Origin: Candidatus Dojkabacteria bacterium
GTDB lineage: Bacteria > Patescibacteriota > Dojkabacteria > SC72
Assembly: GCA_050950165.1 (NCBI GenBank)
Contig: JBMNHC010000001.1
Coordinates: 325,724-389,723 of the forward strand
DNA length: 64,000 nucleotides
Direction: 5' to 3'
The stretch's first letter is position 1; the number at the start of each line of letters is the position of its first letter. Below the pieces are notes generated by a model. That model did no database searches, was not told the origin of the DNA, and saw only the letters and a program-made list of their open reading frames with translations. Shown here one piece after another: positions 48,583-53,500 of the stretch. The translations under genes and the position numbers were made by a program.

Positions 48583-50180
48583 TCAATGAGAGTTTGATCA
48601 TAGCTCAGGATGAACGTTGGCTGTGTGCCTAAGGTATGCAAGTCGAACGGCCCGCTAACTTATAGTCGCTTGCGACTGTAAACTAGCAATGGCAGTGGCA
48701 AACGGGTGAGTAACACGTAGATAACTTGCCTTGAAGTCGGGAATAGCTCGTCGAAAGACGGGGTAATATTCGATAGTCTCTAATTACTTCGTGTATTTTA
48801 GAGTAAAGCTTTTGCGCTTCGAGAGAGGTCTGCGTCCTATCAGCTAGTTGGTGAGGTAATGGCTCACCAAGGCTAAGACGGGTAGCTGGTGTGAGAGCAC
48901 GGTCAGCCACCGTGGAACTGAGACACGGTCCACACTCCTACGGGAGGCAGCAATTAGGAATCTTGCGCAATGGGGGCAACCCTGACGCAGCGACACAGCG
49001 TGGAGGAGGAAGGTCTTCGGATTGTAAACTCCTTTTATATGGGAAGAATAGATGACTGTACCATATGAATAAGGACCTGCTAACTACGTGCCAGAAGCAT
49101 CGGTGATGCGTAGGGTCCAAACGTTATCCGGATTTATTGGGTGTATAGAGATGCGTAGGCGGTTTAATAAGTCTTGAGTTAAAGACCTCGGCTCAACCGA
49201 GGGAATGCTCCGGATACTATTAGACTTGAGGCATAGAGAGGTGAACGGAATTCCGAGTGGAGTGGTAAAATACGTTGATATTCGGAGGAACATCAGTGGC
49301 GAAGGCGGTTCACTGGCTATTTGCCTGACGCTCAGGCTCGAAAGCGTGGGTAGCAAAACGGATTAGATACCCGTGTAGTCCACGCCGTAAACTATGGATG
49401 CTAGGTGTTTGGCACAACTATTTCTAACCTTCGGGTTTTAAACAGAAGTGCTAAGTGCCGCAGCTAACGCGTTAAGCATCCCACCTGGGAAGTACGGCCA
49501 CAAGGCTAAAACCTAAATGAATTGGCGGGGACCTGCACAAGCGGAGGAGCGCGTGGTTTAATTCGATGGCAATCGAAGAACCTTACCAGGGTTTGACATG
49601 TATCTGCATACCTCTAGAAACAGAGGTAGCCTTCGAGGGTGATACACAGGTGCTGCATGGCCGTCGTCAGCTCGTGTCGTGAGATGTAGGGTTAAGTCCC
49701 GAAACGAGCGCAACCCCTATCCCATGTTACAAGTGTCTTGGGAAACTGCCTCGGTAAAACGGGGAGGAAGGTGGGGATGACGTCTGGTCCGCATAGCCCT
49801 TATGTCCTGGGCTACACACGCGCTACAATGGTCGGCACAATGGGCAGCCAAGCCGTAAGGCGGAGCTAATCCTAAAAAACCGATCTCAGTTCGGATTGTG
49901 GGCTGAAACTCGCCCACATGAAGTTGGATTCGCTAGTAATCGTGAATCAGCCATGTCGCGGTGAATACGTTCTCGGGTCTTGCACACACCGCCCGTCAAG
50001 CCATGGAAGTAGGTGATACCCGAAGGTGTCCTGCTAACTTATAGTGTATATGTAATGGAGTTTGTTAGGTAACCATTCTTTGCACTACAGGTTAGCGGGA
50101 TGACGAAGGTAACGCTTATGACTGGGGTTAAGTCGTAACAAGGTAGCCGTAGGGGAATCTGCGGCTGAATTACCTCCTTT
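48583..50180 (+). rRNA. rrs: 16S rRNA with two short hairpin insertions (V1/helix 6 and the helix 44 tip)
   Basis: AGAGTTTGATCATAGCTCAG at the 5' end and ...AAGTCGTAACAAGGTAGCCGTA...ACCTCCTTT at the 3' end. About 1,598 nt. Confidence 0.95.
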
Positions 50181-50249
50181 CAAGGAGATACCCGACTTTC
50201 CTGTCACTTTTTAGCTCTTAAGGAACTGCTCTTTACAAAAGGACAGTAT

Positions 50250-50326
50250 GGGCGTATAGCTCAGTTGGCTAGAGCACAGTCCTGATAAGACTGAGGTCCC
50301 AAGTTCGAGACTTGGTACGCCCACCA
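50250..50326 (+). tRNA. tRNA-Ile (GAT) in the rRNA spacer
   Basis: GGGCGTATAGCTCAGTTGG..., anticodon loop CTGATAA, ends ...TACGCCCACCA. Confidence 0.9.
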
Positions 50327-50336
50327 GTCAATCCGT

Positions 50337-50410
50337 GGGCCTGTAGTTCAGTTGGCTAGAACGCCTCATTTGCAATGAGGAGGTCAGGAGTTCGACTCTC
50401 CTCAGGTCCA
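50337..50410 (+). tRNA. tRNA-Ala (TGC) in the rRNA spacer
   Basis: GGGCCTGTAGTTCAGTTGG..., anticodon loop TTTGCAA. Confidence 0.9.
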
Positions 50411-50562
50411 AAGATATCAGAAAAAGAAGAGAGATCTTTAATTTCTGTAAAGACAGAGTATTTACTCGTTAGTAGCTATTGGGGTAGGTCCAATTATTAA
50501 TATGTAGCTACTACATAAATACTTAGTGTTGCACATTTAAAACTGAATAGAATAGTAATTTC

Positions 50563-53500
50563 AATGAAGCCAATTAAGGGCATACGGTGGATGCCTTGGC
50601 GCAAAAGACCGATGAAGGACGTGGTAGGCTGCGATAAGCCTCGGGGAGCTGTCAAACAAGCTTTAATCCGGGGATTTCCGAATGGGGTAACCCAGTTAGA
50701 CTCAAATCTAACGACCATACAATGAATTAATAGTTGTATCGGAGGATATGCAGGGAAGTGAAACCTCTCAGTACCTGCGAGAAAAGAGACCAATAGGTGA
50801 TTTCCTGAGTAGTGGCGAGCGAAAAGGGAATAGCCCAAACCAATACTGTGTAAGGAGGATCCAAATCATGATTCGCGTTGCGATGATTGAGGAGGAAAAT
50901 CCGCAGTCTGCCGATCGTGCAGTACTGGTGTAGTAAGAGTTAGTAGATTAGACGGCAGTCTTATCGAGAAGTTACAAAATTTAACTTTAGAAGAACATAT
51001 CTGGAAAGGTAGACCATAGAGAGTGAAAGTCTTGTATTCAAAAAGGTTAAATCTTCTTTCTAATATCTTGAGTACCACGGGACACGTGTAATCCTGTGGG
51101 AATCAGCCAAGACCACTTGGCAAGGCTAAATATCTTTTGCGACCGATAGTGGAGTAGTTCCGTGAGGGAAAGGTGAAAAATACCCCTGTAAGGGGAGTGA
51201 AATAGATCTGAAACCGTGTGCTTACAAACAGTCGTAGCCCCGCTAACTTATAGTTTGAAATTCTTTTTAACAAATACTTAATACTTTTTGTATAAGATAG
51301 GGAATGTACTTTGTTTATGTTCTTCAGTCATTAAACAGGAAAGATAAGCTTTACATAGGAGTTAGTTCTAATCTTTTACGAAGATTAGGTCAACACAATT
51401 CTGTATTTAATACTGGTTATACAAAAAATAACAGATGAAGAATTCTCTATGTAGAAGGATATCTAACAAAAAATATTGCTTATCATCGGGAAAAGAAATT
51501 AAAGTAATATGGAAATGTATGGTATGGAGTTAAAAAGAGAATATTTCGAGCTACAGGTTAGCGGGGTGACGGCGTGCCTATTGAAGAATGACCCGGTGAG
51601 TTAGTTGTGTGCGGCAAGGTTAACCATGTTTATTGGGGAGCCGAAGCGAAAGCGAGTCTGAATAGGGCGTGCCGCTAATCTATAGAGATATCTAAGGGAA
51701 ACTTGTATAACCCTTGGGTTTTCTATAGATTAGCGGGATGAAGTCGCATGCACTAGACCCGAAACCAGGTGATCTAACCATGAGCAGGGTGAAGGAGTGA
51801 GAAATCACTTTGAAGGCCCGAACTCTTTAATGTTACAAAATTATGAGATGACTTGTGGTTAGCGGTAACATGCCAAACGAACCTGGTAATAGCTGGTTCT
51901 CCCCGAAATAGCTTTAGGGCTAGCGTTGTAATTTAATCATTGGGGGTAGAGCACTGATTGGGTCTGGGGCCCGAAAGGGTACCCAATCCAGTTAAACTCC
52001 GAATACCAATGTGAACATTACAGCAGTTAGAACTAGGGAGCTAAGTTCCTACGTTCAAGAGGGAAACAGCCCAGATTGTCAGATAAGGACCCTAAATTAC
52101 ATCTTAGTGGAAAAGGAGGTGGAGTTTCTCAGACAGCTAGGAGGTTGGCTCAGAGGCAGCCATCCTTTAAAAAGTGCGTAAAAGCTTACTAGTCAAGAGA
52201 TTCTGCGCCGAAGATTCAACGGGGCTGAAGATGTATTCCGAAGCTGCAAATTCACCCAGCTAACCTAGAGTATAAATGGTGTAAATTTTGTTAATCCACT
52301 TTTTGTACTATAAGTTAGCTGGATGAATGGTAGGGGAGCGTCCTATACATGATCTACTTAGCAGTAGATACATCGCGATGAAGGTAACCTGAAAAGAGTT
52401 GCTGGAGCGTATAGAAGTGAGAATGCCGGGATGAGTAACGAAAAGCAGGTGAAAACCCTGCTCACCGAATGTCTAAGGTTTCCATGGCTATGGCAGTCAA
52501 CCATGGGTTAGTCGGTCCTAAGATCAGGCCGAAAGGCGTAATCGATGGATAACAGGTTAATATTCCTGTACTACTAATATTTGTGAAGGAGATTGAGAAT
52601 TGAGAAAGCAGGCCCCTCATTGGTTTGGGGTGTAAGTAGTAAATTAGTTTCTTCAGGTAAATCCGGAGAAATATTCTTCGCTTAGTGAAGTGAAAATGAG
52701 CTACGATGCAAAGGTAACCTTCGGGAAGCCGATCTGTTGTATTAATTTTCCAGGAAAAACTTCTAGCGTGTTTACCTTCGGGTAAGCTAAAAAATATTGG
52801 TGACCGTACCGCAAACCGACACAGGTGGACTGGTATGAAAGTACCAAGGTGTACGAGTGATGCGTTGTTAAGGAATTCGGCAAATTGACCCCGTACGTTC
52901 GCAAGAAGGGGGGCCATCCATTATAGATATTTATATTTGTGGTGATGATGGCGGCACAAAATAGGGAAGGACGACTAGTTACCAAAACTACAGGCGCTTG
53001 CAAATTCGTAAGAAGATGTATAAGTGCTGACACCTGCCCAATGCCAGAAGGTTAAGAAAGTTTGTCAATCGTCTGTCAGATGCACTTCGGTGCTCTGATG
53101 GTGAGGAAGCGGACGATCGAAGCCCTGGTCAATGGCGGCTGTAACTATAACGGTCCTAAGGTAGCGTAATACCTTGTCACTTAATTAGTGACTTGCATGA
53201 AAGGTGTAACGATCCTTCCACTGTCTCGACAACGTGCTCGGTGAAATTGAAATGGCTGTGAAGATGCGGCCTACCCATACCAGGACAAAAAGACCCCGTG
53301 GAGCTTTACTGCAACTTTGCATTGGAATAGGACTTTGAATATAGAGAATAGGTGGGAGACTTTGAAGCAGTCTCGTCAGGGATTGTGGAGTCGCAATATG
53401 TAATACCACTTTTTTAATGTTTTATTTCTAACCGCTTCCGTTATCCGGAAGTTGAACAGTGCATGGTAGGCAGTTTGACTGGGGCGGTTGCTTGCTAAAG

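Follow-up and report, generated by a model that had tools for sequence, protein, structure and literature searches.

The classical intervening sequences (IVSs) of Salmonella, Yersinia, Leptospira, Campylobacter and Coxiella, which RNase III excises, replace the loop of helix 25 (H25) or helix 45 (H45) of 23S rRNA, where inverted repeats form a stem of 20–30 bp that contains one or two mismatches; an open reading frame (ORF) is present in some of them, their occurrence is sporadic, and they are considered selfish and spread horizontally (PMC4990558). The Coxiella IVS, located in H45, has a stem formed by inverted repeats, 28 bp long and broken by one mismatch and a bulge, encloses an ORF, is cut by RNase III midway along that stem and is considered selfish and acquired horizontally (PMC4990558). 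In the Candidate Phyla Radiation (CPR), a 2024 survey by Tsurumaki et al. of rRNA insertions of at least 100 bp found GIY-YIG ORFs in non-intron insertions, citing an earlier report of such ORFs (its reference 2), and presumed that RNase III IVSs account for the short insertions without ORFs at H25 and H45, leaving these unlinked to the GIY-YIG ORFs (PMC11270868). The terms "inverted repeat", "Dojkabacteria" and "WS6" are absent from the main text of that survey, which, as far as that text goes, reports no shared repeat, no link between ORF-bearing and ORF-less insertions and no link between 16S and 23S (PMC11270868). Here we analysed a 64-kb stretch of a Candidatus Dojkabacteria genome (contig JBMNHC010000001.1 of assembly GCA_050950165.1; hereafter the window), whose rRNA operon contains five hairpins that share one stem and are paralogues of one small element. 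We consider it likely that the stem they share serves as the terminal inverted repeat in a single selfish, IVS-type family of palindromic elements residing in stable-RNA genes of some Dojkabacteria.

The elements of the window resemble classical IVSs, which are typically located at 23S H9, H25 and H45, in that they replace peripheral loops (H25, H45 and helix 44 (h44) of 16S rRNA, as well as H98 in relatives, with the site near E. coli 23S nt 652, hereafter Ec~652, as an exception), form long stems of 20–30 bp and occur sporadically. They share with the non-intron insertions of CPR genomes the same super-group and a GIY-YIG ORF within an rRNA insertion for which no intron model gives a match. 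In contrast to the classical IVSs, one repeat family here occupies up to six rRNA positions (h6, h44, H25, Ec~652, H45 and H98) together with a tRNA spacer, the ORF encodes a GIY-YIG nuclease rather than S23p, and excision is proposed by analogy. What is new is a single repeat family across both rRNAs at up to six positions, and a nuclease-coding member that is under selection alongside ORF-less derivatives.

Insertions with a common stem

The motif GCTAAYYTATAG has seven exact matches in the window compared with 0.10 expected from shuffling, and none of 100 shuffles reached seven. Five matches lie on the plus strand (6174, 48654, 50033, 51242 and 51674) and two on the minus strand (51723 and 52308), and a search allowing two mismatches located degenerate partner arms at 50085, 51551 and 52259. 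All the exact matches fall within the rRNA operon except one in the spacer between tRNA-Arg and tRNA-Ser, and the motif search found no other copy in the remaining ~58 kb of the window. No copy was seen by eye in the leader, spacer or trailer of 16S and 23S, where the motif searches list none either, and about 450 kb of fetched related loci held no copy outside rRNA. A first-pass annotation of the window had listed the motif at these 16S and 23S sites and suggested one small element, or one recognition stem of a processing enzyme, as the source of five hairpins; its count and coordinates proved exact, the confinement of the motif to the operon and one tRNA spacer answers its question of scattering within the window, and the hairpins are indeed paralogous insertions of patchy presence and absence.

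To locate the insertions, the window operon was aligned with that of E. coli (L001) using MAFFT, which gives E. coli positions that are pairwise and approximate to a few nt, and site lengths were counted as nt between conserved anchors in about 25 Dojkabacteria operons. Related operons were collected by synteny (L004, L006 and L010), by a lineage-specific 23S 20-mer with one genome per species (L013–L038), and by scanning metagenomes with a two-arm motif pattern (L039–L057). Synteny was followed through the ATP-dependent DNA ligase gene immediately upstream of 16S, whose product is 100% identical to a protein of a Candidatus Dojkabacteria (WS6) genome and whose relatives are all from Dojkabacteria, and gave three useful operons only; the position of the rRNA operon is not conserved. 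The coordinates of the elements and their hosts are collected in Table 1.

Table 1. Elements of the repeat family and their host genes in the window
Feature	Position	Strand	Detail
Host rRNA operon	48582..54380	+	Rfam; complete operon
16S rRNA	48582-50180	+	Rfam
tRNA-Ile		+	Rfam
tRNA-Ala		+	Rfam
23S rRNA	50563-54135	+	Rfam
5S rRNA	54264-54380	+	Rfam
V1 (16S helix 6) motif hairpin	48651..48693	+	CCC-GCTAACTTATAGTCGC-TT-GCGACTGTAAACTAGC
ORF-less element capping 16S h44 tip	50030..50099, core 50033-50096	+	insertion at E. coli 1424-1452
ORF-bearing element replacing 23S H25 loop	51239..51565, core 51242-51562 (321 nt)	+	MAFFT
GIY-YIG nuclease pseudogene inside H25 element	51304..51561	+	in frame with intact 87-88 aa homologues
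ORF-less element, junction linker after E. coli 637-651 hairpin	51672..51736, core 51674-51734	+	
ORF-less element capping 23S H45	52256..52322, core 52259-52319	+	E. coli ~1163-1185
Truncated solo copy, tRNA-Arg(TCT)/tRNA-Ser(GGA) spacer	6171..6196	+	CCA-GCTAACTTATAGTGT-TGGATG

Four window sites are 50–316 nt longer than in the ~25 relatives, where the empty sites are short conserved hairpins, and the 23S gene as a whole reaches 3573 nt against a model of 2925 positions (Rfam). The H25 element is a 315-nt insertion after E. coli nt 542 that brings the site to 337 nt versus 21 nt in the relatives; the empty site nearly always reads GAGCCGGTATATCCGGTGACG, a sequence that more than 15 genomes share without change. 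The inverted repeat at the ends of the element is CCCGCTAACTTATAGTTTGAAAT / ATTTCGAGCTACAGGTTAGCGGG, and its interior is 62–77% identical to those of the H25 elements of L023, L039, L044, L052 and L055. The h44 tip measures 78 nt versus 24–27 nt, its arms (GCTAACTTATAGTG / CACTACAGGTTAGC) contain a U.G pair at position 7 and an A.C pair at position 9, the predicted fold has -33.8 kcal/mol (z -4.5), and orthologous elements are present in L039, L048, L051, L052, L053, L056 and L058. H45 measures ~81 nt versus 28–32 nt, with a fold of -31.6 kcal/mol (z -4.5) and orthologous elements in nine other loci. At Ec~652, 69 nt are added after E. coli nt 651, giving 85 nt versus 17–19 nt and a fold of -41.7 kcal/mol (z -8.2), and among the operons compared the full element is found in this genome only. 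The alignment identifies four true insertions relative to E. coli and to the Dojkabacteria operons, and it places those in H25 and H45 at the classical IVS sites, as the first-pass annotation had proposed.

Not all of the copies extend a helix tip, as that annotation had supposed; this holds for h44, H25 and H45. At Ec~652 (where helix names follow the E. coli map) the linker joins a hairpin to the 3′ strand of the helix that encloses it, and the Rfam structure line and the relatives show that the copy replaces a linker of 3–5 nt, so that it forms a new branch. The predicted perfect 13-bp inverted repeat of this copy was confirmed as its outer palindrome, GCTAATCTATAGA / TCTATAGATTAGC. A mini hairpin of 21 nt stands at the same junction in L022 and L025; in L022 it reads GTTAATC-TTTT-GATTAGC, equal to the outermost 7 bp of the window's Ec~652 element, and it is either a footprint or a precursor of the element. 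The V1 hairpin of 16S is a replacement rather than an insertion: the site has 51 nt in the window versus 55–57 nt of unrelated sequence in relatives, the fold is weaker (-20.2 kcal/mol, z -2.5), and the 3′ arm is degenerate. As read from its sequence, it is a degenerate minimal copy that has replaced the native V1 hairpin without a gain in length. A motif-like V1 also occurs in L053 and L058 (CCCGCCAACCTATAGTTGC...). The 100 nt just 3′ of it (48682–48781) are 97% identical to the carrier L056 and 86–89% identical to element-free relatives, and may represent the recombination tract that brought in the motif-bearing V1.

The stem common to all copies is 5′ CCCGCUAACUUAUAG / CUAYAGGUUAGCGGGAU 3′. 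The consensus at h44 and H45 is 5′ (R)UCCC-GCUAACUUAUAG-(U/C)GUGAG ... UUCGCA-CUACAGGUUAGC-GGGAU 3′, and the H25 elements have UUAUAGGUUAGC as their 3′ arm. The sequence GG(G/A)TGA, which had been reported to follow each copy, for the most part simply extends the inverted repeat (RUCCC...GGGAU) and is absent after V1. We also considered GGGATGA as a box C/K-turn signal and rejected it, since it continues the inverted repeat (RUCCC/GGGAU) and its flanks pair.

We found 36 instances of the element with 19 distinct arm pairs at h44, H25, Ec~652, H45 and H98, 28 of which are covered by the arm table. Pairing was analysed in 21 distinct stems (alignment A1) with the arms joined by an artificial GAAA loop, a design that tests arm pairing only. 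Standard pairs fill 93.4% of the cells, nine pairs change on both sides, and none of 500 shuffles reached the observed paired fraction or covariation score; when the partner columns were slid, pairing fell to 33–45%. The outer 15 bp are almost invariant in sequence, and the inner 6 bp covary. The 5′ arm of H98 has changed to GCUAAUUUGUGG and still pairs with the unchanged 3′ arm by G.U and G-C, and a U-A pair has become C-G in the H45 element of L039. At the positions that are not Watson-Crick, G.U occurs 70 times on the rRNA-sense strand versus 18 times on the antisense strand, indicating that the sense-strand fold, whether of RNA or of the non-template DNA strand, is under selection. Across all elements the predicted stems are continuous, with single mismatches only, and 20–30 bp long (z -4.5 to -10.6).

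Outside the rRNA operon, the first-pass annotation had noted a sixth half-copy in a tRNA spacer, which is a real, window-specific insertion: the tRNA-Arg/tRNA-Ser spacer is 33 nt long in the window versus 5–12 nt in four relatives (L066–L069), where it reads GTTTG or GTTTACTAATTG after the encoded CCA. The 15-mer in this spacer is identical to the 5′ arm of the h44 element, and its flanks are similar to those around the H45 copy. It is hard to see how homologous exchange of rRNA genes would have brought part of the element to this non-homologous stable-RNA locus. The adjoining tRNA-Arg(TCT) and tRNA-Ser(GGA) (window 6160–6173 and 6280–6292) lack the in-place encoded CCA of all four relatives, the ends compared being GGGTACG-CCA versus GGGTACG-CGTCCA and CTCTCCG-CCA versus CTCTCCG-CACCA. 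A motif-like string after tRNA-Ser (6292, AACCTATAGT) is probably not a copy, as the relatives have similar native sequence there.

The GIY-YIG gene of the helix 25 element

The H25 element encloses an ORF of 44 codons at 51304–51438 that reads MYFVYVLQSLNRKDKLYIGVSSNLLRRLGQHN..., and its 44 N-terminal residues match PF01541 (E 3e-8). The reading frame is interrupted by two nonsense codons, TGA at 51436–51438 (a conserved Trp) and TAA at 51505–51507, and the final TAG lies in the 3′ arm. The sequence otherwise stays in frame, and the window gene is a recent pseudogene. An intact protein of 87–88 aa is encoded on the rRNA-sense strand in L023, L039, L048, L044, L055, L058 and L059 (for example, MYFVYVIKALKPSKKKYYIGVSSNLLRRLKEHNS...), matching PF01541 at E 1e-12 to 1e-13, above the curated cut-off. 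Residues Y5, Y18, G20, R28, H32, N33 and R63 are invariant and E64 is nearly so. Between lineages, non-synonymous differences (pN 0.06–0.21 per site) are far below synonymous ones (pS 0.59–0.87, saturated), indicating that the nuclease is functional in those lineages; dN/dS is ~0.05 where computable, and purifying selection was detected in four other lineages.

By sequence, the nearest solved relatives are SLX1 and UPF0213 proteins. In an AlphaFold model (pLDDT 80), UPF0213 protein BH0048, At-HIGLE and Slx1-Slx4 match ahead of I-TevI. The H25 ORF is thus, as judged from its sequence, a minimal 88-aa SLX1/UPF0213-type GIY-YIG nuclease whose catalytic activity is predicted. SLX1, At-HIGLE and the UPF0213 (YhbQ-like) proteins, which give the best sequence and fold matches and share the same conserved residues, are cellular repair or resolution enzymes or are uncharacterised, and we know of none embedded in an rRNA gene between inverted repeats. 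The very large stand-alone GIY-YIG family of 80–130 aa to which the H25 protein belongs has 18,870 cluster representatives at E<=1e-3. Homing endonuclease genes of the I-TevI type are similar in placing a GIY-YIG core inside an intervening element of an essential gene, with a patchy distribution. However, the protein here has 88 aa without a DNA-binding domain, is not located in a self-splicing intron, belongs to elements at several different target sites and, according to the model, is structurally nearer to SLX1, HIGLE and UPF0213. Neither a group I or II intron host nor a separate DNA-binding domain was found for the H25 gene. The empty H25 site would be a suitable target for homing cleavage.

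The decay of the coding element can be followed among relatives. L052 has a 32-nt deletion. In L051 and L056 only a 52-nt hairpin with the same ends occupies the site that holds the ORF-bearing element of 371 nt in the closely related L039 and L048, which directly shows the change from a coding element to an ORF-less hairpin. The outer 13–15 bp are common to the H25 elements with the ORF and to the ORF-less elements at h44, H45, H98 and Ec~652.

Small, distant GIY-YIG genes (45–47% identity) were also observed beside tRNAs in L062 (3890–4345, Moranbacteria) and L070 (700–1150). One of these genes is found immediately upstream of tRNA-Ser(GGA) and is preceded by a partial tRNA-like duplication; the other follows directly after a tRNA and is flanked by two copies of a 35-nt palindromic hairpin.

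Distribution and origin of the elements

In other Dojkabacteria operons the same stem caps h44, H25, H45 and, near the 3′ end of 23S, H98, and the family thus extends beyond this genome. The carriers are L023 (UBA2177), L039, L044, L047, L048, L051–L053, L055, L056 and L058–L061, which come from independent NCBI, JGI and ENA assemblies and have the same arms of 15–18 nt. The window's own rRNA, compared by a 23S core segment and by 100-nt sliding windows, is closest (92–100%) to L032, L035, L037, L016 and L027, all of them without elements. The main carrier clade (L023/L047, L039/L048/L051/L056 and L052/L055/L058) is 75–94% identical to the window in most 100-nt windows, and two more carriers, L044 and L025, stand elsewhere in the tree. 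In these trees, which are based on short rRNA segments, the carriers form at least 3–4 separate, non-sister lineages, and the elements are absent from ~25 related operons. Throughout the tree the empty sites are short and conserved, which makes the empty state look ancestral. Judging from these comparisons, gain of the elements, or their exchange with empty alleles, must have happened several times.

We considered a recent transfer from one of the sampled carriers with co-conversion of the flanks. Over 45 nt to each side, the flanks of the window elements match element-free relatives rather than carriers, and the interiors are strongly diverged, those of h44 and H45 being unalignable between lineages. 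These two observations argue against such a transfer, except possibly at 48682–48781, and it was rejected. The metagenome scan also returned ten non-rRNA matches to the two-arm pattern, which are GCTAATTTATAG-type palindromes with no rRNA or tRNA nearby and were taken to be unrelated or due to chance. A non-rRNA palindrome in L043 (3218–3293, soil metagenome; CCCCGCTAATTTATAGG...CCTATAAATTAGCGGGG) resembles the repeat including its CCC/GGG flanks and has no RNA gene nearby.

Based on these results, we propose the following mechanism. The full-length member of the family would be the H25 element, in which an 88-aa nuclease is placed between inverted repeats of ~21 bp. The elements of 52–67 nt at h44, H45, H98 and Ec~652, the V1 hairpin and the tRNA-spacer remnant would be ORF-less relatives that have kept the outer 15–17 bp. 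In the primary transcript the repeats would pair into an almost perfect stem of 20–30 bp, and since this stem closes the interrupted host helix, the ribosome is proposed to tolerate the insertion. The nuclease, which probably acts on structured DNA, for instance cruciforms or hairpins, and not on a long sequence, would drive or maintain the spread of all copies carrying the repeat; we propose tentatively that it mobilises the copies, and rate this somewhat below an even chance. RNase III, which is specific for double-stranded RNA, would cut the stems from the rRNA precursor as in classical IVSs and leave both 16S and 23S fragmented; we give this excision about an even chance. Because the nuclease is dead in this genome, the copies here would be relics, which fits the imperfect V1, H45 and spacer copies.

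The family can also be compared with pairs of autonomous transposons and miniature inverted-repeat transposable elements. In both, terminal inverted repeats are common to a long copy that bears a nuclease gene and to many short copies lacking an ORF, a derivative with an internal deletion occupies the same site (L039 versus L051), and solo ends persist as remnants. Unlike these pairs, the elements have no target-site duplication, their flanks continue the inverted repeat, and their only ORF is a GIY-YIG core rather than a known transposase fold. They are moreover confined to stable-RNA genes, with a repeat that is under RNA-level selection on the sense strand. A more specific proposal, which we regard as unlikely, is that the SLX1-like GIY-YIG protein is the mobility enzyme of an element of a hitherto unrecognised kind, a structure-specific nuclease by which palindromic hairpin cassettes would be moved or copied into the hairpin-forming DNA of very highly transcribed stable-RNA genes, such as rDNA helix tips and tRNA spacers, the cassette repeat doubling as the RNA stem for excision or tolerance by the host. 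If true, this would be the first mechanism for the spread of rRNA intervening sequences, and it might extend to the small GIY-YIG genes that other CPR lineages (L062 and L070) carry beside tRNAs and between duplicated hairpins.

Several observations weigh against the proposed mechanism. The nuclease consists of the catalytic core only, and to our knowledge no GIY-YIG enzyme acts as a transposase. Neither target-site duplications nor a common target sequence were seen at the element flanks, which also show no co-conversion from sampled carriers. The sense-strand bias of G.U pairs shows selection on the fold and is silent on mobility of the DNA. Since the short elements share no more than the outer 13–15 bp with H25, selection by a host factor could mimic common descent. 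An inverted insertion was considered for H45, whose arms (GCTAACCTAGAGTA / TACTATAAGTTAGC, with C.A and G.A mismatches in RNA) are the exact strand swap of those of L044; it was rejected, as the interior keeps the sense orientation and is similar to that of the h44 element of the window itself. No RNase III gene was found among the 27 window ORFs scanned, which include RNase J, with ~20 plausible ORFs lying outside the scan.

The stem might instead be maintained by the host as a processing or recognition site, the alternative that the first-pass annotation had offered. The elements would then be IVSs or expansions of no or only loose relationship, whose basal stems have converged or been homogenised by gene conversion, with the GIY-YIG gene as a passenger in the H25 copy, and CCCGCUAACUUAUAG / CUAYAGGUUAGCGGG would be recognised by a sequence-selective double-stranded RNA nuclease or an assembly factor. 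This would account for the conservation of the outer 15 bp in sequence and not only in pairing (U.G in 18 of 21 stems at position 7, A.C in 11 of 21 at position 9), for the bias of wobble pairs to the sense strand and for a 3′ arm that is more conserved than the 5′ arm, as in H98. The 3′ arm of the window's H25 element equals that of its own h44 element (CTACAG) and not the TTATAG of other H25 elements, which hints at homogenisation within the genome. On the other hand, a general host requirement is contradicted by the absence of the stem from most Dojkabacteria, and the same sites are occupied in non-sister lineages. Selection by the host leaves the nuclease gene and the truncated tRNA-spacer copy unexplained, as well as the repeat shared by an ORF-bearing copy and its deletion derivative, and no such sequence-specific factor is known to us for the clade. 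We therefore find it rather improbable. (The preference of Mini-III for ACCU may be set beside the AGGU/ACUU step of the stem; this is an idea only and was not used.) Of comparably low probability is that the hairpins are expansion segments retained on the solvent side of the mature ribosome, with one protein docking on their stem. In other organisms, expansion segments occur at each of h6, h44, H25, H45 and H98, all sites but one are peripheral helix tips, and the operon has several other lineage-typical expansions; the stems are stable and closed, so that removal is not needed, and cutting h44 would detach the 3′ ~100 nt of 16S. However, retention would place a protein-coding insert of 260 nt in H25 of mature 23S and leave the nuclease unexplained, the presence of the hairpins varies among close lineages, and their interiors evolve freely, one of them shrinking from 371 to 52 nt. 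Their architecture also matches that of elements shown to be excised elsewhere (PMC4990558).

Splicing and chance fare worse. Self-splicing group I or II introns, or bulge-helix-bulge introns, would be spliced out with ligation of the rRNA; CPR rRNA genes are described as rich in group I and II introns in the survey cited above (PMC11270868), and in some relatives U1917, a classical intron site, is occupied by an insertion. No intron family reached the gathering score in the window, nor E<=1 in 51225–51760, and the short elements of 52–67 nt are simple hairpins whose predicted stems lack bulge-helix-bulge geometry (two 3-nt bulges flanking a 4-bp helix), which makes introns very unlikely. Ordinary variable helices, or a recurrence of the 12-mer by chance or through low-complexity AT-rich helices, could be invoked for a V1 copy that is no longer than the V1 of relatives, in an operon whose other expansions are lineage-typical. 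This explanation can be dismissed for practical purposes: it is refuted by the excess of motif matches over the shuffled expectation, by the lengthening at four sites and by the same arms in independent assemblies. A selfish, IVS-type family thus remains the reading that we favour.

The origin and movement of IVSs have been obscure since their discovery, and the elements look like mobile DNA. We know of no mobility gene tied to rRNA intervening sequences. The present repeat family joins a selected nuclease copy, deletion derivatives and short copies, and so provides a testable candidate in the 88-aa enzyme and its repeat of 15–17 bp. The elements alter the length and sequence of CPR 16S and 23S at V1 and h44, with effects on primers, rRNA-based classification and assembly. 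If the elements are excised, the 16S rRNA of this genome would be in up to three pieces and the 23S rRNA in up to four.

Other features of the window

The rRNA genes contain further differences that do not involve the stem. Stem-less expansions are located at 49397–49423 in 16S (after E. coli nt 821) and at 50837–50989, 52351–52375, 52719–52802 and 53068–53097 in 23S (E. coli 269–293, 1207, 1550–1597 and 1866); L006 has them too, indicating that they are lineage-typical. At U1917 (E. coli numbering) in helix 69 (window 53153–53154), a known CPR intron site, L010, L014, L023, L024, L026, L028, L029 and L047 carry an insertion of 0.1–1.1 kb after AACTAT, and the window has none. The 530 loop of 16S (49088–49107) reads GCCAGAAGCATCGGTGAT instead of the near-universal GCCAGCAGCCGCGGTAAT and is conserved in relatives; it would escape common 515F-type primers.

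Outside the rRNA operon, where the G+C content is 32–38%, the window encodes a tRNA-Ile with the anticodon UAU (38053–38127), which is unusual for bacteria, and a tmRNA (18353–18763) with an unusual tag peptide, VENKLNAFASKLKAAFTAPLYAYNFA. The gene context (1221–2915, 8121–13560, 4196–6049, 35482–38001 and 56485–62325) includes RNase J and a replication-origin-type cluster of jag-like KH/R3H, yidC, yidD, dnaA and dnaN. The same regions contain a baseplate-J-like protein, conserved across Dojkabacteria, beside a PilM-like gene, as well as a TraG/VirD4-like ATPase and an ORF of 1946 aa.

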